Under the pieces are notes generated by a model. The model did no database searches. It saw only the letters and a list, made by a program, of their open reading frames with translations, and was not told where the DNA came from. A stretch of 33,279 nucleotides of DNA from a virus (lineage: Duplodnaviria > Heunggongvirae > Uroviricota > Caudoviricetes). The DNA lies in IMG/VR virus record IMGVR_UViG_2718217785_000004; one strand, 5' to 3'. Within the stretch, counting starts at the first letter, position 1; each line of letters opens with the position of its first letter. Shown here one piece after another: positions 8,396-32,229 of this stretch. The translations under genes were made by a program, and so were the position numbers.

Positions 8396-8450
8396 GATGG
8401 ATCCCCTGAATAAAAACCAGAGATGATGCCACTTGCCCGTTATCTCTGCA

Positions 8451-9949: not shown

Positions 9950-9950
9950 G

Positions 9951-15571: not shown

Positions 15572-15585
15572 GGTGTTTACTCCGT

Positions 15586-16083: not shown

Positions 16084-16364
16084 TACGGTTTCCCCCTACC
16101 CTTAAAGCGGCGCTGAATGGCAATCTCAATCACCTGATAACCGGCGATACCCAGCATGGAGCCGATACCGCACACCGCAGGCAGTGACAGGTCAGGAAAC
16201 TGCACCAGAACAACACCGGCAACCATCGAGACAAAACCACCGAGCAACATGCGCCCGATAAACAGACGCGGGGTGATGGGTTCACCACCGGCAAGCACCT
16301 TGCCGACAACAATCAGCACCCCAATCATGAAAAGCGACAGGACGCTTTTTTCTTCTGCTGTCAT
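16083..16364 (-). CDS. Y: Holin Y
   Basis: 93-aa ORF with hydrophobic TM segments and charged C-terminus (RRFKGRGKP). Confidence 0.8.
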   Translation of the reverse strand: MTAEEKSVLSLFMIGVLIVVGKVLAGGEPITPRLFIGRMLLGGFVSMVAGVVLVQFPDLSLPAVCGIGSMLGIAGYQVIEIAIQRRFKGRGKP

Positions 16365-16367
16365 GCG

Positions 16368-16571
16368 TTACTCCCACAGATTGACAGTTTCAGCCACGGG
16401 CGCGGTCTGAACGTCGGGCAGTTCGACGGCGATGCCGTGTGGCAGCACCGCACCCAGTTCAGCCAGTCCCGGATTTGCGGCGAGCACGGTCTCAACCACG
16501 CCCTCAGTGCGCCCGTAATACCGGACACAAATGGCGTCGAGCGTGTCGCCCTGTAGCGCAAAGGTCTTCAT
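16368..16571 (-). CDS. X: Tail protein X
   Basis: Translation MKTFALQGDTLDAICVRYYGRTEGVVETVLAANPGL...; start ATG 16569..16571 overlaps L stop (ATGA). Confidence 0.8.
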   Translation of the reverse strand: MKTFALQGDTLDAICVRYYGRTEGVVETVLAANPGLAELGAVLPHGIAVELPDVQTAPVAETVNLWE

Positions 16572-17080
16572 CAGATTTGACTCACGATGCAGCGCGGCTT
16601 GTCCTGGATGCGCGCCACTGCCCAGCGCATATCCCGCCACAGCTCATCAATGGTGCTGTCAATGCTGTCGGCCTTCTTGTCGCCTTTCGCACTGGCATCC
16701 ACACCGCGATAACGTTCATAAAGCGACGCGGTCGCCATCGCACACACGGCGCGCTCGTAGTAAAAAACTTTGATGCTTTCACCGTCGATGTCGTCCGCCG
16801 GGACGTCCGCCAGACGCGTAAAACCGGCGGCAATTTTCTGTTCGCGGTACTCGTACAGCTCCGCATTCGTCTCCGCCATGCCTGACTTGATGGCCTCACG
16901 CAGACGGGCGGGGGCGACGGTCTGCTCAAGGCGCATACGTTCCCGGACGCGCTTCGGGTCGATATCGGGAAAAAAGAACGTGTTTTTAATCACCGGCTCG
17001 TCGCCTGCCGGTTGCGGGATGACCACCGTACCCTCACCAGACACGGGAGCCTCCTTTCGCGGAATAATCAGCGTCATCAT
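16571..17080 (-). CDS. L: Head completion protein L
   Basis: ORF 16571..17140; probable start at MMTLIIPRKEAP (17080). Confidence 0.75.
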   Translation of the reverse strand: MMTLIIPRKEAPVSGEGTVVIPQPAGDEPVIKNTFFFPDIDPKRVRERMRLEQTVAPARLREAIKSGMAETNAELYEYREQKIAAGFTRLADVPADDIDGESIKVFYYERAVCAMATASLYERYRGVDASAKGDKKADSIDSTIDELWRDMRWAVARIQDKPRCIVSQI

Positions 17081-17179
17081 GACTACCTCTGAAAAGTCGG
17101 GCGGTGGACGCCGGTGCAGTGTCAGGTGATTCACCCTCACTGACCGGCGTGCCGCCCTGGCGCGGGGCGCATTCGGTTG

Positions 17180-17923
17180 TTAACTGGCTTTCTTTTTCGG
17201 GCGTCCACGTTTTGCCGGTGTCACGCTCCGGGTCTTACGCGGGGCGCGGGTGGCCGCTTTGGGCTGCGGCTCCGGCTTCGGTTTCAGCTCCCGCTCCAGT
17301 CGTTCAATCTCTTTTTTGACGCCTGCCTGACAGTCGAGCTGTGTCGCACGTTGCAGGTGAGCCAGCGCACCGGCGGCATCACCACCGTCACGCAGAAACA
17401 GACCGGTAATTTTGTGCAGCTTTGCGCGTACTTCATCAGGCATGTCAGCCGTGGCGGTCAGTTCAAGGGTCTCCGTCAGCAGGCGGGTATCCACAGACTC
17501 ACCGGCAGCGTGAGCGCGCATGGCCGCAAGCGCTACCTCCTCGGTGAACATGTACGGCGGGGTACGGCGGTGTTTACCCGGCATGGTCAGACCGTACTTC
17601 AGGGCATAACGGGCAATCTCCAGCGCACCGGCAATATCGCCGGTATCCAGACGCCACAGCATGACCGTCATCAGAATGTCATCCTGTGCACCTTTGCCCT
17701 GCTCCAGCACGCCGTTCACCCACGGCAACCAGAACGGCAGCAGTTCGCGTTTTTTCGCGGCCTTCAGCTCTTTTGAATAAATCGCTTTCAGTGTGCGCTG
17801 GTCTGCGGCGAGCTTAACCAGCATCTGCTCATAGACAGTTGCATGTCGCAGCGGGGCGGCTTCCCGCTGCGCGGTCATCGCTGCCGAGACCCGCATCATG
17901 TGGCGCTGTGCGGGACTCGTCAT
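17180..17923 (-). CDS. M: Terminase small (endonuclease) subunit M
   Basis: 247-aa ORF with basic C-terminus, P2 synteny between N and L. Confidence 0.75.
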   Translation of the reverse strand: MTSPAQRHMMRVSAAMTAQREAAPLRHATVYEQMLVKLAADQRTLKAIYSKELKAAKKRELLPFWLPWVNGVLEQGKGAQDDILMTVMLWRLDTGDIAGALEIARYALKYGLTMPGKHRRTPPYMFTEEVALAAMRAHAAGESVDTRLLTETLELTATADMPDEVRAKLHKITGLFLRDGGDAAGALAHLQRATQLDCQAGVKKEIERLERELKPKPEPQPKAATRAPRKTRSVTPAKRGRPKKKAS

Positions 17924-17926
17924 CGG

Positions 17927-19000
17927 TTACGCTCCCGGCTCTGCGGTCGCTTTAGCCAGTGTGGAGAAATCACCGACCTTAATTTTTTCCACCAGACAAC
18001 CGGCGGCGTAGTCTTCCACCACGTAATCAATGTTCATTGACTCGTAGTTCTCCACGCGGTCGAGTTTCGGGTTTTCCTCAATCACGCGGCGATGGCTGTC
18101 ATCCATGTAGTAGATGGACAGGTTTTCCAGCTTTGTGATGAGCATCGCATCCGCCGGGAAGTACGGGACGCGTACCGCCGGCAGGTTACCGATGCGTTTC
18201 TGGCTGGTGATGACGTCAGCGGCCAGCATTTCGCTGTTGTCCTGCTCCTTGTTGACGATGGGAAAATACTTGTCCGCCAGTAGCTGACGTCCCACAATCA
18301 CCACAAGGTCAGGGTCTTCCTGATACCACGGCTCAATCAGGTTGTTGGTCGCATCCATCACCAGTGCGTCAAGGCTGGCATAATCACCGCCCTTACCCAC
18401 GCGGATAACCTCAGAGGTGGTGTGCCCTTCCTCGTCAGTGACCTTGCTCATCACGCGCGCCGGTGCTTCATTGCGGTATTTCTGCAGCCAGCCGACCGCC
18501 ACATCCTGTAGCATCGGATTACTGCTGCGGTCAGAGGTTTCGGCACGCCTCACGCCGTTAAAACCGGCCATGATGAAATCAAGGGACTGGCGTTTGATAA
18601 TGGCGTTACGGACACGGAGCTGGAAATCCTGATAACGCGCCCACAGGTCAAGCGTTTTGTAGCGGATATAAAAATCGAAGTTAATCTGGTCGCATTCGTA
18701 CTTGTTTGACGCCAGCTTCGAGAAGTCCTTCGGCTGACGCTCGGTGCCACCGGCGGTGTCGGTGGTGCTGGCGATGGAGCCGGTGACACCGATGCCAATT
18801 TTTTCCCCTTTCATTTCGCTGACCGGCACAATGTTGATGCGGGTCAGAAAGTCAGAGGACTCCTGCATGGTGTTCATCAGGGTCTGGGTGACCGACGGTT
18901 CAACGGTGAATTTTTTCGACACATCACCGGCGTCGATGCCGTTCAGTTCGGCAACACGGGACAGGTAAGCATTAAATTTAAAGCGGGTTTCCTGGCGCAT
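17927..19000 (-). CDS. N: Major capsid protein N
   Basis: 357-aa ORF, P2 synteny. Confidence 0.85.
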   Translation of the reverse strand: MRQETRFKFNAYLSRVAELNGIDAGDVSKKFTVEPSVTQTLMNTMQESSDFLTRINIVPVSEMKGEKIGIGVTGSIASTTDTAGGTERQPKDFSKLASNKYECDQINFDFYIRYKTLDLWARYQDFQLRVRNAIIKRQSLDFIMAGFNGVRRAETSDRSSNPMLQDVAVGWLQKYRNEAPARVMSKVTDEEGHTTSEVIRVGKGGDYASLDALVMDATNNLIEPWYQEDPDLVVIVGRQLLADKYFPIVNKEQDNSEMLAADVITSQKRIGNLPAVRVPYFPADAMLITKLENLSIYYMDDSHRRVIEENPKLDRVENYESMNIDYVVEDYAAGCLVEKIKVGDFSTLAKATAEPGA

Positions 19001-19058
19001 AGTTTTTCCTGAAATTAAGGGTTAATCGTGAAGGTTTTCCCGGACTGACTGACGCCGG

Positions 19059-19913
19059 TTAGCAGTTCGTCATCAGGGCGTCACCGCCACCGCCGGTGGC
19101 TTTACTGCGGCGCTGCTGGGTCAGACTTTCGGTGTGGTCGAGACTGTTTTTCAGGCGGGTGAATGCCTGACTGGTTTCATCCGCCCTGTCAGTCACATCC
19201 TGCTTAAGTGCGGAAAAGGCGGTTTCCATCTCAGCAAGGCGCTGCTCAGTGGCGCTCAGTTTTTCCTGCACATGCTCAGCGACAGCGGTCACCGCTTCAT
19301 GCACGTCATTCAGACGGGCGTCATCGCTGGCCTGTTTACGGCCAAAAATGGATTTCACCTTTTCGGTCAGGGCGGTGAACACGGTTTCAGGCAGGTCTTC
19401 AAATTCCAGCTCAACAGGCGTTGCCACTGAAATCAGGTTTTCAGGGCTTAATTTGAAGCGGTTCAGAGGGTTGTGTTTTGCCGTGCGGCAGAATTCCAGG
19501 TATTCCGTGCCGAGGCTTGCCGGGTCATCGGTGACGGCCAGACCCACCAGATAACATTTGCCGGTATTGGCAAAGTTCGGCTGAATTTCCATTGAGGTAT
19601 AGACCTTCTGCGCGGCCTTGTTCATCGCGATAAGGTCATCGGTCGGGGTGATTTTCGCAAACAGCGCCCATTTGCCTTTCAGCGCCGAATCATCGTCAAT
19701 CTTTTCGGCCTTCAGTTCGACCACATCGCCATAACGCTTAAAAATACCGTCAGGCAGGATGCCGCGCAGATGTTCCAGGTTAATGCGGCAACCATAGACA
19801 CGCGGGTCAAAGGTTTCGGCCATTTCCTGAATATCCTGCGCACTGATGACACGCCCGTCACAGGTGTCACCCTCAACGCCGATACGAAAGAATTTTGAGA
19901 CTTTTTTTGCCAT
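19059..19913 (-). CDS. O: Capsid scaffold protein O
   Basis: ORF 19059..19979; probable start at MAKKVSKFFRIGVEG (19913). Confidence 0.8.
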   Translation of the reverse strand: MAKKVSKFFRIGVEGDTCDGRVISAQDIQEMAETFDPRVYGCRINLEHLRGILPDGIFKRYGDVVELKAEKIDDDSALKGKWALFAKITPTDDLIAMNKAAQKVYTSMEIQPNFANTGKCYLVGLAVTDDPASLGTEYLEFCRTAKHNPLNRFKLSPENLISVATPVELEFEDLPETVFTALTEKVKSIFGRKQASDDARLNDVHEAVTAVAEHVQEKLSATEQRLAEMETAFSALKQDVTDRADETSQAFTRLKNSLDHTESLTQQRRSKATGGGGDALMTNC

Positions 19914-20086
19914 TGTCAGGAGTCCTGAATAGTGATTAGAGGAGTCACATGTCGGCATCAGTTTCCCGACGATGCGCATCCTCCGCCATCAGTCCCGGAT
20001 GGCTTATCACTGATACAACAGCACCTTAGCGAATCGCGGGGCGCGACTCAGTAGCCTTGCCGTGTATTCATCACGGCGAGGTATTC

Positions 20087-21859
20087 ATGACCATCACCAC
20101 AGACACCACTCTTTTACACGACCCGCGTCGTCAGGCGGCGCTGCTGTACTGGCAGGGGTTTTCCGTGCCGCAGATTGCCGCCATGTTGCAGATGAAACGC
20201 CCGACGGTGCAGAGCTGGAAACAGCGCGACGGCTGGGACAGCGTTGCCCCCATCAGCCGTGTCGAAATGAGTCTGGAAGCGCGGCTGACCCAGCTCATCA
20301 TCAAACCGCAGAAAACCGGCGGGGACTTCAAGGAAATTGACCTGCTGGGACGCCAGATTGAACGACTGGCACGGGTCAACCGTTACAGCCAGACCGGCAA
20401 CGAGGCAGACCTTAATCCGAACATCGCTAACCGCAACAAAGGCGGGCGTCGCAAACCGAAAAAGAATTTTTTCAGTGACGAGGCCATCGAAAAGCTGGAG
20501 CAGATTTTCTTTGAGCAGTCTTTCGAATATCAGTTGCACTGGTATCGCGCCGGGCTTGAGCACCGCATCCGCGATATCCTGAAATCCCGCCAGATTGGCG
20601 CGACGTTTTATTTTTCCCGCGAGGCGCTGCTGCGCGCCCTGAAAACCGGTCATAACCAGATTTTTCTGTCGGCCAGTAAAACGCAGGCGTATGTGTTCCG
20701 CGAATACATCATCGCCTTTGCCCGGCTGGTTGACGTTGACCTGACCGGTGACCCGATTGTCCTGGGCAATAACGGCGCAAAACTGATTTTTCTCGGCACC
20801 AACTCCAACACCGCGCAGAGCCATAACGGCGACCTGTACGTCGACGAGATTTTCTGGATCCCGAATTTTCAGGTACTGCGTAAGGTGGCATCAGGTATGG
20901 CCTCACAGAGTCACCTGCGCTCGACCTATTTCTCCACCCCGTCCACACTGGCGCACGACGCCTACCCGTTCTGGTCGGGTGAACTGTTCAACCGGGGACG
21001 CGCCAGCGCCGCCGAACGCGTGGAAATCGACGTCAGTCATAACGCCCTTGCCGGAGGTCTTCTCTGTGCGGACGGCCAGTGGCGGCAGATTGTCACCATT
21101 GAGGACGCCCTGAAAGGTGGCTGCACACTGTTCGACATTGAGCAGCTCAAACGTGAAAACAGCGCCGACGATTTTAAAAACCTGTTCATGTGTGAATTTG
21201 TTGACGACAAGGCGTCGGTGTTCCCGTTCGAGGAGCTGCAACGCTGCATGGTCGACACGCTGGAAGAATGGGAAGACTATGCGCCGTTTGCCGCCAATCC
21301 GTTCGGCTCACGCCCGGTATGGATTGGTTACGATCCGTCACACCGTGGCGACAGCGCCGGATGCGTGGTACTGGCACCGCCGGTGGTGGCCGGTGGCAAA
21401 TTCAGGATCCTTGAGCGTCACCAGTGGAAAGGCATGGACTTTGCCACTCAGGCTGAATCCATCCGCAAACTCACCGAAAAATACAACGTCGAATACATCG
21501 GTATTGATGCCACCGGCCTCGGTGTCGGCGTGTTCCAGCTCGTGCGCTCGTTCTATCCCGCCGCGCGCGACATCCGCTACACGCCGGAAATGAAAACCGC
21601 AATGGTGCTCAAGGCAAAAGACGTTATTCGCCGTGGCTGTCTGGAATATGACGTCAGCGCCACCGACATCACCAGCTCGTTTATGGCTATCCGCAAGACC
21701 ATGACCAGCAGCGGACGCAGCGCCACCTATGAGGCCAGCCGCAGCGAGGAAGCCAGCCACGCCGACCTCGCCTGGGCGACCATGCACGCCCTGTTAAATG
21801 AGCCACTCACCGCCGGTATCAGCACCCCGCTGACATCCACCATTCTGGAGTTTTACTGA
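20087..21859 (+). CDS. P: Terminase large (ATPase) subunit P
   Basis: ORF 20057..21859; probable start ATG 20087 (MTITTDTTLLHDPRRQ); divergent from O as in P2. Confidence 0.85.
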   Translation: MTITTDTTLLHDPRRQAALLYWQGFSVPQIAAMLQMKRPTVQSWKQRDGWDSVAPISRVEMSLEARLTQLIIKPQKTGGDFKEIDLLGRQIERLARVNRYSQTGNEADLNPNIANRNKGGRRKPKKNFFSDEAIEKLEQIFFEQSFEYQLHWYRAGLEHRIRDILKSRQIGATFYFSREALLRALKTGHNQIFLSASKTQAYVFREYIIAFARLVDVDLTGDPIVLGNNGAKLIFLGTNSNTAQSHNGDLYVDEIFWIPNFQVLRKVASGMASQSHLRSTYFSTPSTLAHDAYPFWSGELFNRGRASAAERVEIDVSHNALAGGLLCADGQWRQIVTIEDALKGGCTLFDIEQLKRENSADDFKNLFMCEFVDDKASVFPFEELQRCMVDTLEEWEDYAPFAANPFGSRPVWIGYDPSHRGDSAGCVVLAPPVVAGGKFRILERHQWKGMDFATQAESIRKLTEKYNVEYIGIDATGLGVGVFQLVRSFYPAARDIRYTPEMKTAMVLKAKDVIRRGCLEYDVSATDITSSFMAIRKTMTSSGRSATYEASRSEEASHADLAWATMHALLNEPLTAGISTPLTSTILEFY

Positions 21860-22893
21860 TGAGCAAGAAAAAAGGGAAAACACCGCAACCTGCGGCAAAA
21901 AAAATGACCGCCAGCGCCCCGAAAATGGAGGCATTCACCTTTGGTGAGCCGGTGCCGGTACTCGACCGCCGTGACATTCTGGATTACGTCGAATGCATCA
22001 GTAACGGCAGATGGTATGAGCCACCGGTCAGCTTTACCGGTCTGGCAAAAAGCCTGCGTGCTGCCGTGCATCACAGCTCACCGATTTACGTCAAACGTAA
22101 TATTCTGGCCTCGACATTTATCCCGCATCCGTGGCTTTCCCAGCAGGATTTCAGCCGCTTTGTGCTGGATTTTCTGGTTTTCGGTAATGCGTTTCTGGAA
22201 AAGCGTTACAGCACCACCGGTAAGGTCATCAGACTGGAAACCTCACCGGCAAAATATACCCGCCGTGGCGTGGAGGAGGATGTTTACTGGTGGGTGCCGT
22301 CCTTCAACGAGCCGACAGCCTTCGCGCCCGGCTCCGTGTTTCACCTGCTGGAGCCGGATATCAATCAGGAGCTGTACGGCCTGCCGGAATATCTCAGCGC
22401 CCTTAACTCTGCCTGGCTGAATGAGTCAGCCACGCTGTTCCGCCGCAAGTATTACGAAAACGGCGCGCATGCCGGATACATCATGTACGTCACCGATGCC
22501 GTGCAGGACCGCAACGATATCGAAACGCTTCGCGAAAACATGGTGAAGTCGAAAGGCCGCAACAACTTTAAAAACCTGTTTCTCTATGCGCCGCAGGGGA
22601 AAGCCGACGGCATAAAAATTATCCCGCTCAGTGAAGTGGCAACGAAAGACGATTTTTTTAATATCAAAAAAGCCAGCGCCGCTGACCTGCTGGACGCGCA
22701 CCGTATCCCCTTTCAGTTGATGGGCGGCAAGCCGGAGAACGTCGGGTCACTGGGAGATATTGAGAAAGTGGCAAAGGTCTTTGTCCGCAATGAGCTTATC
22801 CCGTTACAGGACAGAATTCGGGAAATAAACGGCTGGCTCGGTCAGGAGGTCATCCGCTTTAAAAACTACTCACTGGACACTGACAACGGTTGA
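21859..22893 (+). CDS. Q: Portal protein Q
   Basis: 344-aa ORF; start overlaps P stop (TGATG). Confidence 0.85.
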   Translation: MSKKKGKTPQPAAKKMTASAPKMEAFTFGEPVPVLDRRDILDYVECISNGRWYEPPVSFTGLAKSLRAAVHHSSPIYVKRNILASTFIPHPWLSQQDFSRFVLDFLVFGNAFLEKRYSTTGKVIRLETSPAKYTRRGVEEDVYWWVPSFNEPTAFAPGSVFHLLEPDINQELYGLPEYLSALNSAWLNESATLFRRKYYENGAHAGYIMYVTDAVQDRNDIETLRENMVKSKGRNNFKNLFLYAPQGKADGIKIIPLSEVATKDDFFNIKKASAADLLDAHRIPFQLMGGKPENVGSLGDIEKVAKVFVRNELIPLQDRIREINGWLGQEVIRFKNYSLDTDNG

Positions 22894-22898
22894 ACATC

Positions 22899-22920
22899 GC
22901 CGCCTGCTGGCGGCTTTTTT
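22899..22920 (+). terminator. Rho-independent terminator after Q (GCCGCC-TGCT-GGCGGC + T6)
   Basis: Seen in sequence directly after the Q stop codon. Confidence 0.7.
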
Positions 22921-23062
22921 ACACCCCGTCATCACGCCCTCACACGCTCACCACCGCAAAAAACACCCCGCAGACACACCAACGCCTCAACGGGCAGACT
23001 AAGCGCCGTCACGACGCGCTGAGACGCTGAAAAAATAAAATCAGCACCACCGCCAGCGCGCA

Positions 23063-23081
23063 GTGCTTTCCCCGCCTCGCC
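23063..23081. other. cos site: 19-nt P2-type cohesive-end sequence (reverse complement of GGCGAGGCGGGGAAAGCAC)
   Basis: Seen in sequence GTGCTTTCCCCGCCTCGCC; the match to the P2 cohesive end is from memory; located downstream of Q as in P2. Confidence 0.6.
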
Positions 23082-23324
23082 CGCCCGCTTCATGGGGCGG
23101 TTTTAATGCAGTTGCACAGCCATGTCAAAGCCATGTCAACACTAGCAGTATGTAAAAAGAGCAGATATAAGAAACAAATGCAGTTTCATGCAAAAAGCGA
23201 CACACATCATGTCATGAAACAAAGCCGCTAATGAACACTTGCTTTGGTTATCTTAAGGTTTTATCTTCAGCCTAACCTATTGATTGCATGAAACTAAAAT
23301 GAACTCTCAGCAAGGAACGACTAT

Positions 23325-25283
23325 ATGTCAGATTTCGAAATTAAAATTGATTTGAATGTGCTAAATCACCTAGGGATGAGTCTCTATTCCAATACTCCCG
23401 CGGTACTAACTGAGATTATATCAAATGCATGGGATGCAGATGCTCAAAATGTAGAAATTACACTTGATGTTGAGAAAGGAGAGGTCATCATTAAAGATGA
23501 TGGTCATGGCATGTCTAAAGATGACATTATTAATAAGTTCCTAAAAGTCGGTTATGCTCGCAGGGAACATGGAAGAGCCAAAAGCGATCATCTAAAACGT
23601 CAAGTTATGGGCAGAAAAGGTATTGGTAAGCTTGCCATGTTTTCACTTGCCAATAAAATCCAAGTTTATTCGTACAAAAAGGGGGAACAGCCTCAGGCCT
23701 TTGAGGTAGATGTCAAAGATTTACAGCAAAGTATCAAAGAATCAAAAAACTATATTGCTGACTCCCTTGAAATACCCGAAAATCTTGCTTACGGCACTAC
23801 AATTAAATTATTTGAACTAAAAAAAGCCATTGATAGGACTCAAACTTACCTCAGAAAGCGAATAGCTCGTCGATTTAGCATTATTGGCCCCAACCATAAC
23901 TTTACAGTTAAAATTAATGGGACCGATATTACACCGGCAGATAGAGATTTCCTTTCAGATCTCGAGTTCATTTGGGAATTTGGCGAATCCGACCCTGAAA
24001 GGATAAAATCCTGCACAAACATCACACAAAAAAACATATTACCAAATACTATTACCTTTGAAGGAAAAGATGTAAAAGTTAGTGGGTACATTGGCAGTGT
24101 AGTTAAGCCATCACAGTTAAAGAAAGACCCTGAAATATCTAACAACAGCATTACTGTAATCTCTCACGGACGTGTTTTTGAGGAGGACATATTATTAGAA
24201 TTTGGAAGTGCTAAAGTATTCACCAATTATCTGGTCGGTGAAATAGTCGCCGATTTTCTAGATGATAACGAAAAGCCTGATATGGCAACATCTTCTCGTC
24301 AAAAACTACAACAGAATGATCCAAGATACCCTGTACTTAAAGGTTTTCTGGAAAGAACGCTACAACTAATCGATAAAGATTGGGATAAATGGAGACGCGA
24401 AAAAGGAGTAAATGAAGTTAAAAGTAATACTCCAATAGTAAGTGAATGGCTGAATTCTCTCAAAAAACATGAGAGAGAAAGTGCCGAAAAGTTAATTGGA
24501 CGAGTAAACACATTCCGTTTTTCTGGTAATGAGGAAGAACAAAAAGCAGCAAGAAAAACCGTATTAAAAAATACGGTATTAGCCTTTGAAAGACTTAGAA
24601 TTCAAGACAACCTTGATGCATTAGATAAAATAAGCAACCTTCAATCAGAAAATTTTAAAGATGTATTTGCATCTGTCAATGACATTGAAGCAAGCATGTT
24701 TTATGAAATTACTTCGCAACGCCTTAAAGTAATTGAAAAATTCCAAAAAATAACTGATGAAAATCAGCTTGAAAGAGCTGTACAAATGTATTTATATGAT
24801 CATTTATGGTTATTGGATCCTTCATGGGAAAGAGTCACAGGCACATCTGTTATGGAGCAAACATTGACCAAGGAACTAAAACAGATAAACCCTGATGCTG
24901 CTAGCGGTGCTCGTATTGATATCGCTTTCAAAACCGTTTCTGGCAAGCATGTAATTATTGAGATGAAACGACCTAAAGTGCACCCAGATATAATGAACCT
25001 AGTCGCACAAGGTAATAAATATGTACAGGCAACGACACAATGGTTCTCCAATAACCCTAAAAATTGCCCAGGTGGAAATATACCGCATATAGAAGTAATA
25101 TTCCTGGTTGGCTCTGGATATTTACAAGAGAACCAACACTTTATAAATATGCAATTACTTTCTATCAATGGAAAAATATTGACATATAATGACCTAATCG
25201 TGCAATCAAAACAAGCCTATGCTGAATATCAAGACAAAAAGAATGATGCAGCTAGAATTATGAAAATAGTTGAGGGAATCTAA
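23325..25283 (+). CDS. GHKL-type (Hsp90/MORC-like) ATPase fused to a C-terminal PD-(D/E)xK-like putative nuclease; candidate defence/restriction effector
   Basis: N-box EIISNAWDADAQ (res ~31-41), G1 box DDGHGMS (58-64), G2 box GRKGIGKLAMFS (96-107); C-terminus has D...E-x-K pattern (RIDIAF ... VIIEMKRP; D532, E546, K548). AAGGAA Shine-Dalgarno 8 nt upstream of ATG; low GC relative to phage backbone. Confidence 0.65.
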   Translation: MSDFEIKIDLNVLNHLGMSLYSNTPAVLTEIISNAWDADAQNVEITLDVEKGEVIIKDDGHGMSKDDIINKFLKVGYARREHGRAKSDHLKRQVMGRKGIGKLAMFSLANKIQVYSYKKGEQPQAFEVDVKDLQQSIKESKNYIADSLEIPENLAYGTTIKLFELKKAIDRTQTYLRKRIARRFSIIGPNHNFTVKINGTDITPADRDFLSDLEFIWEFGESDPERIKSCTNITQKNILPNTITFEGKDVKVSGYIGSVVKPSQLKKDPEISNNSITVISHGRVFEEDILLEFGSAKVFTNYLVGEIVADFLDDNEKPDMATSSRQKLQQNDPRYPVLKGFLERTLQLIDKDWDKWRREKGVNEVKSNTPIVSEWLNSLKKHERESAEKLIGRVNTFRFSGNEEEQKAARKTVLKNTVLAFERLRIQDNLDALDKISNLQSENFKDVFASVNDIEASMFYEITSQRLKVIEKFQKITDENQLERAVQMYLYDHLWLLDPSWERVTGTSVMEQTLTKELKQINPDAASGARIDIAFKTVSGKHVIIEMKRPKVHPDIMNLVAQGNKYVQATTQWFSNNPKNCPGGNIPHIEVIFLVGSGYLQENQHFINMQLLSINGKILTYNDLIVQSKQAYAEYQDKKNDAARIMKIVEGI

Positions 25284-25288
25284 TTATA

Positions 25289-25312
25289 CCCCCCTGTTTT
25301 TTGACAGGGGGG
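25289..25312. terminator. GC-rich hairpin between convergent stops (CCCCCCTG-TTTTTTGA-CAGGGGGG), putative bidirectional terminator
   Basis: Seen in sequence between stop of the GHKL gene (25283) and stop of the methyltransferase (25325); no clear flanking U-tract. Confidence 0.45.
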
Positions 25313-25324
25313 ATGACATAAGTT

Positions 25325-26374
25325 TTAAATATTCATTTCTGACAAATGTTTTAAAATAGTTTCACCTACGACCTCACCAAGCCTAACAGGAACAGCATTA
25401 CCTATTAAACGCGCAACTGTTCTCATTTCAATTTTTACATCATCAGGCCAAAACTCATACTTTTCTGGGAATGACTGTAATAGCGCAGCCTCTCTTAAAC
25501 TTAATGCTCTATTTTGGACAGGGTGCCCAAAGCGTCCATTCCCATATCCAATACATTGAGTTGTAATTGTCGGTCCAAGTTTATCCCAACACATTCTCCC
25601 ATATACAGCAGTATATGTAGAACCACTTTCTTTTGTATGACATTTTGCTCTTAGCTCTTCTGGCCAATCACGCCATGTTCCACCAGGTTTTGATGCCATT
25701 ATTCTTTTTATATTAATATCAGATAATGATGCAGAGCGATGTAGTTTATCTCCAGCGTGAACAGCACCGGCACTAATTTCAGGAAGATTACCGATTATAT
25801 CTCGCACCGTTTTATAATCATTCTTCTCATGAGTTGGTGGAATTATTTCTATTTCTCCATATTTTGATGCCAATAACACTAATCTTGAACGACTTTGTGC
25901 CATTCCATAGTCTGGACAAAACACCACCCCATACCAAACAAAATAGCCATCATTTTTAAGAGACTTAATGAAGTCCTTAAAAACCTTATGATTCACCACT
26001 CGGGGAACGTTTTCCATTGTAATAATATCTGGCTTTGCAAATTTAATTTGCTTAGCAAAGCTATAAAGCAAAGACCATCTTTTATCTTTTGAACGTACTA
26101 CCCCTAATTTAGCACTATTGGTATAGCTTGAAAAAGGTTGGCATGGGGCACAACCAGCCAAAACTCGAACCTTCGCTCCTTCGAAATATTTAACTAATTC
26201 GCCGTCCTCAATGTCTGTAACACTTTTCTGGACAAAGAGTGATTTATTATTTGTCTCATAGGCAAATCGACAGGCTGCATCTATATCATAACCTGCAACT
26301 ACATTAAGCCCCGACTTCTGAAGACCGTGAGTCAAGCCACCCGCGCCACAGAATAAATCAACAACCTTAATCAA
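25325..26374 (-). CDS. DNA (cytosine-5)-methyltransferase
   Basis: Motif I DLFCGAGG, motif IV PCQPFS (catalytic Cys), ENV, QSRSR, GNAV motifs; ORF track starts at a TTG at 26476, but AGAAGGAGG Shine-Dalgarno 6 nt before a TTG at 26372..26374 (MIKVVDLFCGAGG) suggests the shorter start. Confidence 0.85.
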   Translation of the reverse strand: MIKVVDLFCGAGGLTHGLQKSGLNVVAGYDIDAACRFAYETNNKSLFVQKSVTDIEDGELVKYFEGAKVRVLAGCAPCQPFSSYTNSAKLGVVRSKDKRWSLLYSFAKQIKFAKPDIITMENVPRVVNHKVFKDFIKSLKNDGYFVWYGVVFCPDYGMAQSRSRLVLLASKYGEIEIIPPTHEKNDYKTVRDIIGNLPEISAGAVHAGDKLHRSASLSDINIKRIMASKPGGTWRDWPEELRAKCHTKESGSTYTAVYGRMCWDKLGPTITTQCIGYGNGRFGHPVQNRALSLREAALLQSFPEKYEFWPDDVKIEMRTVARLIGNAVPVRLGEVVGETILKHLSEMNI

Positions 26375-26437
26375 GATAAACCTCCTTCTAATGCTGTGGG
26401 GATTGTAGCATTGTTCTTTCTCATCATCGATGTTTAC

Positions 26438-26476
26438 TTGATGCTTGATTTGTGAATACAAAATCAAGCATGTCAA
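26438..26476 (-). promoter_or_regulatory. Palindrome GCTTGATTT-N9-AAATCAAGC overlapping a TTGACA -35-like hexamer upstream of the methyltransferase; candidate promoter/operator
   Basis: Seen in sequence in the AT-rich 110-bp gap between A stop and the MTase start; -10 element is weak (ACAAAT). Confidence 0.3.
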
Positions 26477-26485
26477 TCATTATTG

Positions 26486-28765
26486 TTAGTTTGTTTCAAA
26501 TCCCGCCCAACCATCAGAAATCGGATATGAAAACGTTTTCCCATCATAATTTACGGTCGCGCCACGCGCCAGCGCCTCAAGCTCCCATCGCTGCGGCCTG
26601 ATACCGTTCTGAGCAAGGTCAACGCGGATACGGGTAATTTGCATTCGTTCCGACCGGGCCAGTCTGGCCGATGGTGCAATTTCATGTGGTTTTAACGAGC
26701 TTCCGTTTCTTTGCTGACGATTTGGCGTTCTCCGACCGTGTTTTAATGCACCTCTGAGCGCCCTCACGACCTCCGGGTCACTCCATTCGATAACACTGTC
26801 ATCAACCAGATTAAGCACTGCTGCGGCGTGCTCAGAAGGTGTGGGAGCCGGTAACGAAGTATCACCACCGGTGAGTTTTCCACAGTTATTGACAGGACTC
26901 CGAGGCGCGGCGATGCCGCTTTTTAAAGTCAAAGGCTCAACGACCGGCACTTTCGGCACAATGCGCCAGTCCGTCGTTCTGGTGATATGAATATGACGCG
27001 CGCCGAGATGCGGCGCGTAAATGCCGACCACTCTCTCGACTTCTTCCTCGTACTCGTTAACGTCATCCGACGGGCTACGGGCAACCCTGACAGTCTGACA
27101 ATCGCGCGGAACATTTGCCCCACCCTGCGCGCTGATATACAACGCAAAATCACCACTGTCTGCGGCAGCGCGTGCAGCCTCGACGCGTTCGTCAAACTCA
27201 TCAGCAATGCTGACGCCGCGAGGCAATTTGCGTAGTTCACGGTAAGCCCCCATTGTCGGCAGGCCAACCGTTTTAAATTGCGGAATGCGCCACGTTGACG
27301 CCCATGCGGTAACAGCCGCGGCAGTGTCTTTCAGCGGCCTGCCGGTATCGTTATCGAGCTGACCATCCAGTGCATAGCCATCGATGTTTTTTGAAATGTA
27401 TTTCGCGATATACCCCGCAGCACCGCCCCGGTTAAGGTGTTTTGCCTGAAAACGGTTTCGCGCAGCTCCTCTTTCGTCGCCATCCTCTTTGAGCGCGTAG
27501 CGACGCATGATTTCAATAATCTGGTTACGCTGGCGTGGATTACAAAAAAGCATCATATGCCAGTGCGGCGTTCCGTCGTGGTGTGGCTCGACGACTCGCA
27601 AACCGTAGACCTGTAAATCATTATCCTTGAATGCCGTGCGCATCAGGCTCCAGATACGGCAGAGATAACGCTGCGCATCCTTTGGATTAAATGCCTCATC
27701 GTTCCAGCCGTGATTTAGCTGGACGGTTTTACTTTCTCCTTTTCCGACCTGACGTGTCGGGTGATACTTTGACGGCGCGGTCAGCGTGATAAACATCCCC
27801 ACATCACCCTCTGCTGCGGCGTAACGCTCAATACCGGCGATGGTGTTCATCAGCTCCATCCGGCGAATTTCTGGATTAGAAATACTGCCCATCACCTTAC
27901 TGATAAGGTCGATGCGCTCGCCGGTTTCCTTGTTTTCAAGGTCACACGATTTAAGAAACTCCAGATTTGCCTGGCGGCGCGCACGCACATCACGAATGGC
28001 ATGTTTACTGGCATAAGGAGAACGGTCTTTATTGACCTCCCCGACAGCAATCAGTAACGCCTCATGCCAGCGCATACGCTGGCCTTTAAGCTGATGAGTC
28101 CACCACTCATCGTTAAACAGACGGGCAATGGCAGAATATGCCTGCCTCGTGGTTATCTGTCCTTTACGGTATTTTTTCCAGTAGAGCGGGGAAATATTGA
28201 AAGCACGTGCAGCGCCAGCAACATGACCATACAGGTGAGTCTGCGCCTCATCCGTAAACAGCGATTCTTTTTCGCCATGTGCATCAACCCATGCATCGCA
28301 GAGTTCCTCATACATCATGAAAAGCTGCGATGAGATACGGGCGGCAAACTTTTTCAGCTCCTTGTCATTCATTCCAGGCAGGCGCGCATAGTGGTCACGC
28401 TCTGCCAGAAACAGCAACGACGCGTCGGTGTTCATTTCATGGCGCTGATTCACGCGCTCAATGCGCGGCCATAAACGACGCTGAAAAGTAGATGTGAGGA
28501 AATAAAACCCGTGCACCGGGCTTTTATTGCGCCGGATGTAGTCATAGCGTGAAGTAAACAGCGAGCGCAAAAAGTAAGGCAGGCGGTTAATCGTGGATAA
28601 AACACCTTGCACCTGACGCATCTCGTCACGTGTAAGGGGTCTTTCGCGCCCGACGGCCTCGCGTGGCGCGTTCCATGCATAAGCACCGGTAAACGCCTTA
28701 CCGGTGCCTGCAGCAAATGCTGACGGAGGTACGCAGGTGTATTGCTCCTGGAAAGAATGACTCAT
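26486..28765 (-). CDS. A: Replication initiation protein A (rolling-circle nickase)
   Basis: 759-aa ORF, size/position of P2 gpA at the end of the early operon. Confidence 0.85.
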   Translation of the reverse strand: MSHSFQEQYTCVPPSAFAAGTGKAFTGAYAWNAPREAVGRERPLTRDEMRQVQGVLSTINRLPYFLRSLFTSRYDYIRRNKSPVHGFYFLTSTFQRRLWPRIERVNQRHEMNTDASLLFLAERDHYARLPGMNDKELKKFAARISSQLFMMYEELCDAWVDAHGEKESLFTDEAQTHLYGHVAGAARAFNISPLYWKKYRKGQITTRQAYSAIARLFNDEWWTHQLKGQRMRWHEALLIAVGEVNKDRSPYASKHAIRDVRARRQANLEFLKSCDLENKETGERIDLISKVMGSISNPEIRRMELMNTIAGIERYAAAEGDVGMFITLTAPSKYHPTRQVGKGESKTVQLNHGWNDEAFNPKDAQRYLCRIWSLMRTAFKDNDLQVYGLRVVEPHHDGTPHWHMMLFCNPRQRNQIIEIMRRYALKEDGDERGAARNRFQAKHLNRGGAAGYIAKYISKNIDGYALDGQLDNDTGRPLKDTAAAVTAWASTWRIPQFKTVGLPTMGAYRELRKLPRGVSIADEFDERVEAARAAADSGDFALYISAQGGANVPRDCQTVRVARSPSDDVNEYEEEVERVVGIYAPHLGARHIHITRTTDWRIVPKVPVVEPLTLKSGIAAPRSPVNNCGKLTGGDTSLPAPTPSEHAAAVLNLVDDSVIEWSDPEVVRALRGALKHGRRTPNRQQRNGSSLKPHEIAPSARLARSERMQITRIRVDLAQNGIRPQRWELEALARGATVNYDGKTFSYPISDGWAGFETN

Positions 28766-29769
28766 TCACATACACCGGCATAGACACTACTGCAAACTGA
28801 CTTATCATTCACCGAAGCCAGCAAATCAAACTGTGCCCCGCCACGCGTGGTCATCGCCCAGTCACGATAAGACTCAATTCCGTAAGCATCGACAGTAATA
28901 ATATCAATGCGGCGTTCCGCACGACGCGGGTCATGAGTTGACGGGAAGAAAGTAGAATTTCCGCGTCTGGAGCATGCGGCGACAAGTCGCTCCCATTCCG
29001 CAACACGCTTAACCTCTTCCGGCCAGCGACTAAAAATTTCAGCTAATTCAGACTTTCTGGCGTGGATGCAGGGCATACAACCGACACGACTGCATCCCTG
29101 CTGGTATAACGGATTAGGTTTAATTCCATGACGTCTTGCAAATGCAAATACCTCCTCATGCGTCCAGTTCAGAATAGGACGGTATACATGGAGCCCGGGC
29201 GTATTGTCCGCATCCTCTTCCCAGGCAGGCAGACCCGCGCGCGCAGGAGACTCCTGAGCGCGAACCCCCTGCCAGCTAATTACCTCATCAAACTCATTAA
29301 GCGCAGGTAACACGACCTGAGTACGTACTGGCTCATGTTTAAGGTCAAAAGTGCAAAATCTGGCTTTAGTGGAAGGAAATCGCCCTTTCCACATGCACAA
29401 ATCAAGAAATGGGATACCAGTAGGCTTGAGAATTTCCAGCGCACAATTGATGCGCTCTGCCGCTTCCCCCGGAGACATTCCGCACTCTTCAACCAGAGAA
29501 ACAGGCCATTTCTCAGCAATAAACTTGCGCTTACCTTCAATCTGTCGGGAGAAGTCAGCTTTAACCCGTTTAACCGGCCCGAGTCGGTTCTCCAGATAAT
29601 CGAGATACTCCATTGTCTGCGGATGCTCATGCCCGGTGTCTGCAAAAACCGGCAAAAAATGCACACCGCTTTCAATACCAACAAGCCATTGAGCAAGGCT
29701 ATCCTTTCCGCCAGAAACAGAAATAATATTGATAGAGCTTTCAGCTCGGCAGCGGGTATCAACTATCAT
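28762..29769 (-). CDS. PAPS-reductase-family PP-loop protein (phosphoadenosine-phosphosulfate reductase/DndC-like fold)
   Basis: PP-loop motif SVSGGKDS near N-terminus and C-terminal Cys cluster CSRVGCMPC; stop overlaps the A start by 4 bp. Confidence 0.7.
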   Translation of the reverse strand: MIVDTRCRAESSINIISVSGGKDSLAQWLVGIESGVHFLPVFADTGHEHPQTMEYLDYLENRLGPVKRVKADFSRQIEGKRKFIAEKWPVSLVEECGMSPGEAAERINCALEILKPTGIPFLDLCMWKGRFPSTKARFCTFDLKHEPVRTQVVLPALNEFDEVISWQGVRAQESPARAGLPAWEEDADNTPGLHVYRPILNWTHEEVFAFARRHGIKPNPLYQQGCSRVGCMPCIHARKSELAEIFSRWPEEVKRVAEWERLVAACSRRGNSTFFPSTHDPRRAERRIDIITVDAYGIESYRDWAMTTRGGAQFDLLASVNDKSVCSSVYAGVCE

Positions 29770-30047
29770 TTAGATTTCCCCGCACAGAGAAACGCAGTCA
29801 GACACTGCTGACCGAGCTGCTCAACCTGAGAGCTCAGCGCCTCAAAAGAGACAGCGTTACCGCTCAAAATATCGTGATGGATCAGACCGGAAACGAGCTG
29901 GTTTAATTTGGGGTAATAGCCGACAACATCCAGCCACTCTTTACCGGCATTCTTCCCGGTTTCAGCGGTCTTTCTCTCCTGCAAAATGAACTGAAAACGG
30001 TCATTTGTGACGACATAACGCTCGCCAATCTCAATACGAATGCTCAT
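29766..30047 (-). CDS. Hypothetical early-operon protein
   Basis: 93-aa ORF, 4-bp overlap with downstream gene; no recognisable motif. Confidence 0.5.
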   Translation of the reverse strand: MSIRIEIGERYVVTNDRFQFILQERKTAETGKNAGKEWLDVVGYYPKLNQLVSGLIHHDILSGNAVSFEALSSQVEQLGQQCLTAFLCAGKSK

Positions 30048-30268
30048 GCCATTCTCCGGTAATGCTTGTTTTTTGCTTCAAAGACTGACTGGCAGGAAAC
30101 ACAACGCGTGGCTGACGGATAAGCCGCACGACGGGCAGCAGGTATTGGCGCGTCACACTCTTCGCAAACCAGCGCAGAAACACCGCAATGTTTTACCCTT
30201 GCCGCGTTAATCTGGCGCTCCAGTAATTCAGCCTGTTGTTCCTGAATAAAATCCTCGTTGTCCGGCAT
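30044..30268 (-). CDS. TraR/DksA-family C4 zinc-finger protein
   Basis: CEECDAPIP...CVSCQ four-Cys motif in a 74-aa protein. Confidence 0.7.
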   Translation of the reverse strand: MPDNEDFIQEQQAELLERQINAARVKHCGVSALVCEECDAPIPAARRAAYPSATRCVSCQSVFEAKNKHYRRMA

Positions 30269-30573
30269 TACCAGCTCCTTTTGTCGTTCAGTTTCTTAAA
30301 TTCATCAGCGCAATAGCTGGCGATTTCTGTCGTTAATTTTGTCAGTTCATCCACGGAGGAAATTTGCTTGTGAAATACAGCGCGTTTAACAAGTAAATTG
30401 ACCACATCAGACAGGAGATTTAATTCGTTCTGATAAATCGCGATAACAGATTCAGTTATGTCGCGTTTTTCTTTATCAAGACAAAGTTGAATAAGAGACA
30501 AATCGCCATTTTTCATAACGGCGATTTTTAAGGCGTTATTCAGTAACACAACTGAATGAGAACAGGACATCAA
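30268..30573 (-). CDS. Hypothetical early-operon protein
   Basis: 101-aa ORF in tightly packed operon. Confidence 0.45.
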
Positions 30574-30794
30574 AGCACCTCCCCGCGAGACAATCCGATA
30601 TTGTGAAATTTTTCCGACTCCTGACTAAGCAGCTCGACTATCTCCACGCGGGATAACTCCGCCTTTGTGATATGGCGAATCATGGCGTCAAGATGAGAAG
30701 AAAAGCGCGTCGCAGCGTCGGCCTGTGCTTCGGTTCTGGCCTGTTGCAGCAGTAATGCGTATTTACCGCACTGATTTTCAGAAACTGTATGCAT
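30570..30794 (-). CDS. Hypothetical early-operon protein
   Basis: 74-aa ORF in tightly packed operon. Confidence 0.45.
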
Positions 30795-30857
30795 GACTTT
30801 CTCCGGGCAAAAAGAAGCCCCGCACGATTAAGCGCGTTAAAAACTCTGGTTAATTAC

Positions 30858-31364
30858 TTAATGCAGATATTGCTCTGGTTTTACCGACGTCAGAATTGTC
30901 GGTGCATACTCAAACAGGCTGAATAATTCACGTAATGCACGGAATAAAGCATCACGCCAGTAACATGATTCTTCATTAATTCGCCAGTATGGCTGGTTGA
31001 ATTCTTTTTCAGTCAATCCGGCATGCATAAATAAAGTACGGCGCTGACTGACAGTTAAAAAGCTAATATATGCATACTCACTTGCACCGACCTGACGGCG
31101 TTTTGAGAATGCCCCACGCAGTTCATCAATTGCACAAACCAGCCGTTCACGTTCGACGTCGTTCATTTCTTCAAAACGCATCGTTGCGTGACGCTGTTTT
31201 AACTGCGCATGGAAGCAAACCGTTAGCCGTTCGCGTTCCATCATCTGATTATAATAATCGCATGTCTCCTGCCAGCGAGGGACGGCCAGATGCTTACCAA
31301 TTATCCGGCGCATAGTTGCTGGCTGTTTTTCAACGAGATTGAGCGTCATCACTGTCATTTCCAT
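30858..31364 (-). CDS. B: Probable replication protein B-like (DnaB-helicase loader accessory)
   Basis: 168-aa ORF at the position and size of P2 gene B; assignment by synteny only. Confidence 0.5.
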   Translation of the reverse strand: MEMTVMTLNLVEKQPATMRRIIGKHLAVPRWQETCDYYNQMMERERLTVCFHAQLKQRHATMRFEEMNDVERERLVCAIDELRGAFSKRRQVGASEYAYISFLTVSQRRTLFMHAGLTEKEFNQPYWRINEESCYWRDALFRALRELFSLFEYAPTILTSVKPEQYLH

Positions 31365-31552
31365 ACCCTCCGGCTTTTCAGAAAGGTCAGAGCCTTTTTT
31401 AACGGACTCTGTTTTTTGGTGCGGATAATGATTCCCTTGCGTCCCTTCCCGTGGGTGATGGTGAAGTCAATCGCCCTGGGGCTTTCGTTACGCAGTAACT
31501 GAGCAATACAACGCGGCTCATTCATAATCACAACCCCATCCACAAAAGCCAT
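31355..31552 (-). CDS. Hypothetical small early protein
   Basis: 65-aa basic ORF between cox and B-like gene. Confidence 0.4.
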   Translation of the reverse strand: MAFVDGVVIMNEPRCIAQLLRNESPRAIDFTITHGKGRKGIIIRTKKQSPLKKALTFLKSRRVWK

Positions 31553-31800
31553 GCATCACGCTGTTCAACCGGTCGGTTATAAAACGCCTCACGTACAGCG
31601 CGATTAAACTCTGGAATGAAAACCCATTTCTCACCGGCGCGGGCCTTCGGCTTATTTGGATCTCGAAGCTCGATAACCGGTAGCTTGTTAGCCTTTATCA
31701 TTTCTGTAACTGCGGTTTTTGGTTTACCCAATAAATCTGCAAACTTTTCCGCATGTACCGCATCAAGCGGGTACTTAATCACATAATCATTAACTTCCAT
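31528..31800 (-). CDS. cox: Cox-like excision/transcriptional regulator
   Basis: 90-aa ORF, first gene of the early operon divergent from C; C-terminal ...RDAWLLWMGL resembles P2 Cox. Confidence 0.7.
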   Translation of the reverse strand: MEVNDYVIKYPLDAVHAEKFADLLGKPKTAVTEMIKANKLPVIELRDPNKPKARAGEKWVFIPEFNRAVREAFYNRPVEQRDAWLLWMGL

Positions 31801-31935
31801 CTATGTTACCCTCATAGGATCCAGCCCCTTAAAAACCGCTTGGAACCGTTTAAGCGGCGCTGGACTCACGCCCGAAAAGGTTCTGGATTAATGACCTTCT
31901 CGGGGAATATAGTCATTAAGTCAGGACTATGTCAA
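31801..31935. promoter_or_regulatory. Lysis-lysogeny switch region with presumed face-to-face Pe/Pc promoters and operators
   Basis: Intergenic region between divergent cox and C; assignment by P2 analogy, individual sites not resolved. Confidence 0.4.
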
Positions 31936-32229
31936 ATGAATATCGCACAGAAATTAAGAGCAATAAGACAATCGGAAGGGCTAACTCAAGCAAAATTCAG
32001 TGAAATCAGCGGTATAGCGTTAGGAACGCTAAAGAATTACGAAGGAGGCCATCAAGACCCTGGCATCCAAGTTGTGTTGCAGGTCACCAATGCACCTCAG
32101 TTCCAAAAATACACACTATGGCTCATGACAGATAAAACAGCGCCGGAAGCGGGACAAATCGCACCGGCTCTCGCGCACATTGGGCCAGAGTCAACAGAAT
32201 CCGACCACTCCGCGAAAAGGATTGGCTAA
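31936..32229 (+). CDS. C: Immunity repressor C
   Basis: Probable start at internal ATG 31936 (MNIAQKLRAIRQSEGLTQAKFSEISGIALGTLKNYEGG... HTH); C-terminal ...APEAGQIAPALAHIGPES resembles P2 C. Confidence 0.8.
   Translation: MNIAQKLRAIRQSEGLTQAKFSEISGIALGTLKNYEGGHQDPGIQVVLQVTNAPQFQKYTLWLMTDKTAPEAGQIAPALAHIGPESTESDHSAKRIG

Follow-up and report, generated by a model that had tools for sequence, protein, structure and literature searches.

What occupies the interval between the cos site and the replication gene A of a P2-like prophage, and does the base composition of that DNA tell when it arrived? The question is raised by a stretch of 33,279 nucleotides (nt), IMG/VR record IMGVR_UViG_2718217785_000004, referred to below as the window. 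An initial annotation had recognised in this interval an AT-rich block containing a GHKL gene and a DNA methyltransferase (MTase) gene, and had read its composition as the mark of recently acquired cargo. It is very likely that a P2-like Escherichia coli prophage carries the block as the cargo cassette of its gpQ-gpA hotspot, next to cos, and that the block encodes a two-gene Type II restriction-modification (R-M) system of the HgiDII/BbrUII family, made of a nuclease gene, R, and an MTase gene, M. The sequence identifies the window as an E. coli prophage of the P2-like (Peduovirus) group: positions 21000–29000 match, with 100% identity, a prophage integrated next to cpxP in E. coli C11, in which the P2 gene order is complete and whose integrase marks the end of the window. 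Its own gene order is P, Q, cos, island, A, and further on cox, C and int. The island is thus located between the portal gene Q with the exact cos 19-mer on one side and gene A on the other, where P2 (NC_001895) has old and tin.

The compositional contrast was borne out by sliding-window analysis, changepoint fitting, codon third positions and trinucleotide usage. The G+C content (GC) of the whole window is 0.521; that of the island (23117–26485) is 0.369, compared with 0.551 upstream and 0.53 in gene A. In a 500-bp profile, GC dropped from 0.51–0.59 to 0.33–0.39 between about 23000 and 26500 and then recovered; the six windows within the island had values of 0.354–0.372, whereas those outside had a mean of 0.538 (standard deviation (sd) 0.044, minimum 0.444). 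A two-changepoint maximum-likelihood fit of GC, run over 15000–31000, placed the island at 23101–26553 (GC 0.368), with a gain of 195 log-likelihood (lnL) units over a model with no island and 2-lnL support intervals of 23089–23153 for the left edge and 26495–26561 for the right edge. The computed steps are therefore where they had been predicted, at about 23100 and 26480. GC at third codon positions (GC3) was 0.286 in R and 0.279 (long open reading frame (ORF)) or 0.257 (RefSeq start) in M, compared with 0.712, 0.649 and 0.537 in the backbone genes P, Q and A. The trinucleotide L1 distance between cargo and backbone was 0.516, and the maximum for any 3.4-kb chunk of backbone was 0.235.

These values dispose of the idea that the dip is statistical noise, or a property of coding sequences unrelated to mobility. 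Milder dips do occur elsewhere in the window (8700–10100 and 30150–32050, at 0.43–0.45), and they are all that speaks for it. The island windows are about 4 sd under the backbone, the likelihood gain is the one given above, the trinucleotide distance is twice the backbone maximum, and the edges of the island coincide with breakpoints of homology; the chance that noise accounts for the dip is practically nil, and we consider it refuted.

The junctions were defined by comparison with six Peduoviruses that carry unrelated cargo (Fic/VbhT, ParB with an MTase, cdtABC, retrons, DUF4238 and DUF4209) between flanks 96–98% identical to those of the window. Homology broke at 23114–23117 on the left in all six cases, and resumed on the right at 26459, 26499, 26499, 26512, 26512 and 26705, an edge that coincides with the gpA stop codon at 26486. 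The alignment that the initial annotation had proposed for setting the boundaries thus gave a left limit at 23114–23117 and a right limit at 26459–26512, apart from the one value of 26705. The block had been made to start at 22894, which is 223 bp too far left: 22894–23116 is conserved cos-region DNA with a GC of 0.605. On the other side, the statistical changepoint falls inside A because the last 20 or so codons of gpA (26486–26553, minus strand) have a GC of 0.353; these codons are homologous between phages and more diverged than the rest of A. Being both AT-richer and diverged, they suggest that the 3' end of an essential gene takes part in the recombination junction of the cassette.

All six alternative cargos are AT-rich (GC 0.33–0.41, flanks 0.53–0.56), and P2 itself, measured directly, has values of 0.329 for tin, 0.348 for old, 0.34 for orf30 and 0.328 for fun(Z), so that the pattern was already plain in the classic non-essential genes of P2. 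Low GC is therefore a general property of cargo in the gpQ-gpA slot. Terminal direct or inverted repeats were searched for at the cargo edges and none was found. Such repeats would point to a transposon- or integrase-type insertion; their absence fits an exchange of cargo by homologous recombination in the conserved flanks, which we propose as the route.

The hotspot is not new. It was defined by Rousset et al. (2022; PMC9122126), who counted 1,650 arrangements in 18,150 occurrences and found many experimentally validated anti-phage systems in the slot, and it was re-examined by Moura de Sousa et al. (2026; PMC13586616). Table S5 of PMC9122126 has an entry at this hotspot for the pair WP_000598783 and WP_001279022, which are the proteins annotated in C11, where the locus is 100% identical; the site, the part it plays as a reservoir for defence genes and the presence of this very gene pair in it are thus all already published. 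In keeping with this, the proposal that non-core cargo here fills a variable locus known from P2-like phages, between cos and A, stands, as homology breaks at both edges of the block. Compared with the old/tin hotspot of P2, the block has the same position between portal gene and cos on one side and gpA on the other, the same conserved flanks around a swapped interior and an equally AT-rich cargo; nothing structural differs, except that the pair of the window is outside the set of systems tested in PMC9122126. The terms 'GC content' and 'AT-rich' are absent from both hotspot papers.

R (23325..25283, plus strand, GC 0.359) encodes a 652-amino-acid (aa) BbrUII/HgiDII-family restriction enzyme, the name it also bears in RefSeq, with a paraMORC3 architecture. 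It matched the NCBIfam equivalog NF050001.1 with 751.4 bits (cutoff 550), residues 4–651 aligning with positions 1–658 of the 659 of the profile, and the PADLOC model REase_II with an E-value of 2e-91; Pfam HATPase_c_3 was found in the N-terminal domain, and Pfam searches with the isolated middle and C-terminal regions returned no informative match. The layout is an N-terminal GHKL ATPase, an Hsp90/MutL-like middle domain and a predicted C-terminal Shedu-type PD-(D/E)xK nuclease. An AlphaFold model of the whole chain (predicted local distance difference test (pLDDT) 79) matched the N and M domains of Hsp90/TRAP1 with an E-value of about 1e-12. The whole-chain fold search was dominated by such Hsp90-like matches, and the C-terminal domain was modelled separately: residues 460–652 (pLDDT 85, predicted template modelling score (pTM) 0.80) had E. 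coli SduA 8ps5 as best match (E 2.4e-5, TMq 0.54), followed by the Bacillus cereus Shedu nuclease domain 8ti9 and then by ordinary PD-(D/E)xK enzymes. The ATP-binding residues of the GHKL domain (E30, N34, D37, D58xGxG62 and G96–G101) and the nuclease residues E483, D532 and E546xK548 are present in the window and invariant in 54 homologues, down to 44% identity. The enzyme may depend on ATP.

The same series of domains was described for the paraMORC3 family, with GHKL, S5/middle and C-terminal RE-fold nuclease domains, E-D-ExK residues and an R-M context; that family was defined computationally and includes standalone members (Iyer, Abhiman & Aravind 2008; PMC2292703). The record of phage PhiR44_1 contains a near-identical gene pair annotated ParaMORC3 and Dcm. 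R.HgiDII was described as an enzyme with an N-terminal GHKL domain and an unassigned C-terminal domain (Orlowski & Bujnicki 2008; PMC2441816); in the protein of the window, the corresponding domain is modelled as a Shedu-type PD-(D/E)xK fold.

M (25325..26374, minus strand, GC 0.384, RefSeq start) encodes a 349-aa C5-cytosine DNA MTase, from a TTG start preceded by GAAGGAGG. It matched Pfam DNA_methylase PF00145 (1.3e-55, positions 1–323 of 324), as well as TIGR00675 and PADLOC MTase_II, and motifs I (FxGxG), IV (PCQ), VI (ENV), VIII (QxRxR), IX and X were found in order at residues 8, 77, 121, 160, 294 and 325. Both genes named in the initial annotation are therefore present; the description can be refined to one unit, given the NF050001 match of R, the linkage of the two genes across genomes and the properties of the target recognition domain (TRD) of M.

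Linkage was examined in species-representative genomes. A single-protein scan of these genomes with R gave no match, whereas a profile search confirmed at least 579 loci; the best 80, which are 34–43% identical and span many bacterial phyla as well as archaeal metagenome-assembled genomes (MAGs), were analysed. A homologue of M was present within 600 bp in 66 of the 80, and at least 4 of the remaining 14 loci end at contig edges. Among the 66 linked loci, M is upstream and co-directional in 60 and convergent, as in the window, in 4. Across 62 partner MTases, the TRD (M residues 186–295) was on average better conserved than the rest: it is 57% identical to that of the window, compared with 46% for the catalytic core, and 39 of its positions are conserved at 90% or more. 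TRDs of 5-methylcytosine (m5C) methylases with different targets are normally unalignable. The higher conservation of the TRD than of the core points to one specificity shared across the family. As a separate observation, a MAG named 'uncultured Cenarchaeum sp.' (OY282369.1) contains at least five GHKL-nuclease homologues, four of the five having no adjacent C5-methyltransferase homologue.

The main alternative to a cognate pair is that R is a Shedu type I-D sensor nuclease triggered by infection cues, and that the MTase serves another purpose, such as shielding phage DNA from other restriction enzymes. Its model is VcSduA of Vibrio cholerae, a GHKL-SduA protein that defends as a single gene with no methylase and is inactivated by the E27A and K557A mutations, so that both ATPase and nuclease residues are needed (PMC12137116; classification in PMC10441436). 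The likeness is close: the domain order is the same, SduA structures are the best fold matches of the nuclease domain, E30 and K548 of the window are equivalent to E27 and K557 of VcSduA, and 11 of the 54 relatives of R match Pfam SduA_C. Moreover, Shedu genes frequently lie within R-M loci (PMC10441436), and about 10 of the 76 informative loci among the best 80 have no adjacent MTase. VcSduA acts alone, however, whereas the subfamily of the window is tightly linked to an m5C MTase, so that the single-gene definition of Shedu does not apply to R, either here or in those 66 loci, which are spread over many phyla and are mostly M-R operons. In addition, R passes a curated equivalog model whose name comes from two characterised restriction enzymes, the TRD is conserved above the catalytic core, which is what a cognate pair with a fixed target should show, and R is accompanied by M in the phage-borne copies of each of the six genera examined. 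We therefore regard a Shedu sensor as improbable, and conclude from the sequence comparisons that R and M most probably form one cognate Type II R-M system in which the nuclease is of the GHKL-Shedu kind. With the characterised HgiDII/BbrUII systems it shares a full-length match above the curated cutoff, the N-terminal GHKL domain and an m5C MTase partner with a conserved TRD; it differs from them in that its genes are convergent, which is the minority layout, and phage-borne.

HgiDII and BbrUII both cut GTCGAC according to REBASE, and GTCGAC is on balance the favoured recognition site for the system of the window. The R-M system would then work as follows. M, an m5C MTase with a promoter of its own on the side of gene A, would methylate this site on host and prophage DNA. 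R, transcribed from the cos side, would couple a GHKL-ATPase clamp to the fused Shedu-type PD-(D/E)xK nuclease and cut incoming DNA that lacks the methylation, and the lysogen would thereby be protected from other phages. The cassette as a whole would be swapped between P2-like genomes by homologous recombination in the cos core and in the 3' end of A.

Several points weigh against this scheme. The nuclease domain of R was not matched by Pfam SduA_C even at E≤10. A consensus promoter scan gave no more matches than shuffled sequence, and no promoter of R was identified in this way. The GTCGAC specificity is drawn from the REBASE entries for HgiDII and BbrUII and from the conservation of the TRD, and searches of the literature gave no statement of specificity. 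Avoidance of the site does not help, since the window contains 3 GTCGAC sites for about 10.6 expected and P2, which has no such module, contains only 2; the depletion is generic, and it was discarded as evidence of specificity. No experiment on the R-M module of the window was found in the literature, and the module is not in the table of tested systems of PMC9122126. Finally, by analogy, VcSduA indicates that a mode of action other than R-M exists for the GHKL-Shedu fold.

A further possibility is that the module is mainly selfish, post-segregational killing serving to stabilise the prophage or the cassette. This would be compatible with the R-M reading, and it is favoured by the make-up of this Type II pair, which has no controller protein and whose convergent promoters are independent; a cargo nearly identical across diverged backbones is likewise compatible with a self-spreading cassette. 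The slot, however, holds many systems whose anti-phage activity was validated experimentally, and the rapid swapping of loci at this hotspot, as reported in PMC13586616, argues against strong addiction. A mainly selfish role is thus possible and rather unlikely.

In the R-M module of the window, R and M are convergent and 41 bp apart, and are separated by a GC-rich hairpin (25289..25312; dG -20.6 kcal/mol), which is a candidate bidirectional terminator. An inverted repeat of unrelated sequence was seen by eye at the same junction in four of five orthologous modules, only the repeat of the window having been folded. The region upstream of M (26375..26485, minus strand, GC 0.351) contains an extended -10-like element, TGCTACAAT, about 30 nt before the start codon, and TGnTACAAT is found at a conserved position upstream of M in the modules of the window, Pantoea, Serratia and Vibrio. 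A palindrome, TGATTT-N8-AAATCA, is present at 23347–23368 and at 26445–26466. It was considered as an operator shared by R and M and rejected: the copy in R just encodes the invariant IDLNVLNH motif, and neither copy is kept in five orthologous modules.

How old is the cassette? Matching hotspot flanks were found in 2226 of 5426 complete E. coli genomes, and the cargo in 30, always with both flanks. One of these carriers, E. coli STE15 (NZ_CP095823.1 249806–257991), has the region interrupted by an IS21-like ISEc12 element (istA/istB). The cargo of the window differs from that of PhiR44_1 and of four E. coli hosts by 1–4 positions in 3369 bp (99.88–99.97% identity), whereas in the same comparison the flanks have 20–51 (left) and 18–30 (right) differences per 1.1 kb or so (95.4–98.4% identity). 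By this measure the cassette is far younger than the surrounding backbones, which indicates its recent spread within E. coli by recombination.

Outside E. coli the picture is different. In Pantoea, Serratia, Providencia and Proteus, P2/186-like prophages carry the same convergent pair in the same slot, between the portal gene and gpA. Amino acid identity to the proteins of the window is 82% for R and 75% for M in Pantoea ananatis (GC 0.37 and 0.39, backbone P/Q/A 0.56–0.59), 77% and 75% in Serratia marcescens (0.35 and 0.39, backbone 0.57–0.59), 73% and 65% in Providencia rettgeri (0.31 and 0.37, backbone 0.42–0.46) and 68% for both in Proteus mirabilis (0.289 and 0.35, backbone 0.41–0.44). 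The module of the window has values of 0.36 for R and 0.38 for M, with a backbone of 0.53–0.58 for P/Q/A. In Vibrio parahaemolyticus (R 70%, M 63%; GC 0.39 and 0.43, backbone 0.48 for A only) the module, at 8001–11037 of the stretch compared, lies between the cI repressor gene and int of a 186-like prophage, a hotspot that differs from the Enterobacterales one. Backbone identities over those prophages are of the same order as those of R and M: 60–72% for P, 59–65% for Q and 31–59% for A. As a side observation, a DinI gene follows the methylase in the Pantoea prophage.

In every host the GC of the module is below that of its own backbone, low-GC Proteus included. This deficit has persisted through about 30% nucleotide divergence, and AT-richness is therefore no evidence of recency. 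It is better described, on these comparisons, as a stable trait of the module and of hotspot cargo than as a clock, and the module gives the impression of having long been carried within the Peduoviridae cargo pool; its repeated import from a shared low-GC pool is a conceivable, less favoured alternative to long residence.

The reading of the initial annotation, that the block is foreign to P2-like phages and owes its composition to a direct and recent transfer out of a low-GC donor, can be weighed against these data. GC3 values of 0.26–0.29, far from the backbone, are in its favour, as are the 99.9% identity of the cargo across E. coli hosts whose flanks are 2–5% apart and the presence of the cargo in only 30 of the 2226 P2-bearing E. 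coli genomes. But orthologous convergent modules occupy the same Q-A slot in four other genera and another slot in Vibrio, with identities (68–82% for R, 63–75% for M) of the order of those of the backbone; the GC deficit exists in each host, even in Proteus (R 0.289, backbone about 0.43); and all cargos examined at the slot, including P2 old and tin, are AT-rich. We consider a recent transfer of this kind quite unlikely. A recent spread of the cassette within E. coli is documented by other evidence, namely 1–4 cargo differences for 18–51 flank differences; the step from AT-richness to recent acquisition fails.

The left edge of the cassette adjoins cos, and part of the AT-rich stretch belongs to cos. 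The exact 19-nt cohesive-end sequence of P2, GGCGAGGCGGGGAAAGCAC, is present with no mismatch at 23063..23081 (minus strand; cosL/cosR annotation of NC_001895). It is followed by a conserved flank (23081..23116, plus strand), consisting of a GC hairpin with TTTT and then AATGCAGTTGCA, which is found in all compared phages and in satellite P4 and is the last backbone DNA ahead of the homology break. In offsets counted from the base after cos, this flank contains an ATGCA motif at +25 (23106–23110). Two further phased ATGCA motifs are located at +97 (23178–23182) and +107 (23188–23192) on the plus strand, at positions conserved in P2-like phages and in P4. Between them and the flank is an AT-rich spacer (23117..23177; +36 to +96) of 61 nt, whose sequence is unrelated between phages with different cargo and whose length is fixed, 72 nt separating the +25 from the +97 motif. 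ATGCA, or a one-base variant of it, was observed at +25, +97 and +107, and often again at about +117 to +120, in the window, the six comparison phages, P2 and Pantoea. In the Serratia prophage the array was recognised by the spacing of ATGCA alone, and the Providencia and Proteus prophages keep only the +25 motif, with a degenerate ATGCG or TGCA near +97.

P4 has only the cos region in common with P2 and is packaged by the P2 terminase. It carries the array at +25, +97, +107 and +120, and does so on the psu side, not on the side of the defence hotspot; the array is therefore probably a cos-associated element and not a promoter of the cargo. It is probably part of the packaging signal, judging from its arrangement, and possibly a site for terminase or for a bending protein. 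If the array belongs to cos, the cargo proper begins after about 23193, and 23117–23177 is a variable spacer that travels with each cassette. The leftmost 90 bp or so of the AT-rich stretch would thus belong to a conserved cos-flank geometry common with P4, and not to the cargo. No description of an ATGCA array near cos was found in the searchable literature, which did not include the primary cos paper.

Other features were noted around cos. A tQ-like rho-independent terminator, made of a GC hairpin and a T-run, follows Q (22897..22914, plus strand) and is the counterpart of the annotated P2 tQ. Two small ORFs, 22932–23093 (minus strand) and 23106–23231 (plus strand), are given as hypothetical proteins in deposited records such as that of PhiR44_1; the first spans the cos cleavage site and the second starts in the conserved +25 ATGCA, and both are probably spurious gene calls. 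In the Pantoea and Serratia stretches, extra small genes lie between the portal gene and cos (6792–7546, DUF1493 and DUF8209; 6928–7272, HicB). Judged by the positions of the ATGCA array, these genes precede cos, and cargo can therefore flank cos on both sides.

The backbone genes next to the cassette are the terminase large subunit gene gpP (20087..21859, plus strand, GC 0.575; Pfam Terminase_6N/6C/Terminase_5), with the RefSeq start of the 100%-identical C11 locus, the portal gene gpQ (21859..22893, plus strand, GC 0.531; Pfam Phage_portal and annotation of related records) and the replication initiator nickase gene gpA (26486..28765, minus strand, GC 0.531; Pfam Phage_GPA, 4e-124). Between gpA and an orf83-like gene, a 335-aa ORF (28762–29769, minus strand) is annotated in C11 as a member of the phosphoadenosine-phosphosulfate reductase family. 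This slot has no gene in P2 and a Dam-like MethyltransfD12 gene in the Pantoea, Proteus and Providencia phages; it is a second accessory slot, and is not AT-rich (GC about 0.50). At 7802–9949 (GC 0.43–0.45), an invertase-like recombinase gene adjoins tail-fibre and tail-fibre-assembly cassettes present on both strands, which looks like an invertible host-range segment in place of the fun(Z) region of P2. Several GC-rich 6-bp palindromes are absent from the window compared with Markov expectation: GGCGCC (0 for 17.8), TCCGGA (0 for 7.4), CCATGG (0 for 6.0) and CGTACG (0 for 5.0).

In conclusion, this analysis fixes the boundaries of the cargo to within a few bases and shows that low GC cannot date cargo at this locus, as P2-like phages from at least five genera carry this module with its deficit retained. 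For annotation, the lesson is that the pair should be called one R-M system, and not an 'ATP-binding protein' with an orphan methylase. A broader view is more speculative, and we advance it tentatively, as unlikely to hold in all its parts: HgiDII-family enzymes would be ATP-driven Shedu-type nucleases licensed by m5C at a fixed site, the GC deficit would be selected rather than historical, for example through H-NS-type silencing, and, separately, the +97/+107 ATGCA array shared with P4 may belong to the P2/P4 packaging signal, as a part so far undescribed that accompanies each cassette. If HgiDII-family enzymes do act in this manner, they would link classical Type II restriction mechanistically with Shedu immunity.

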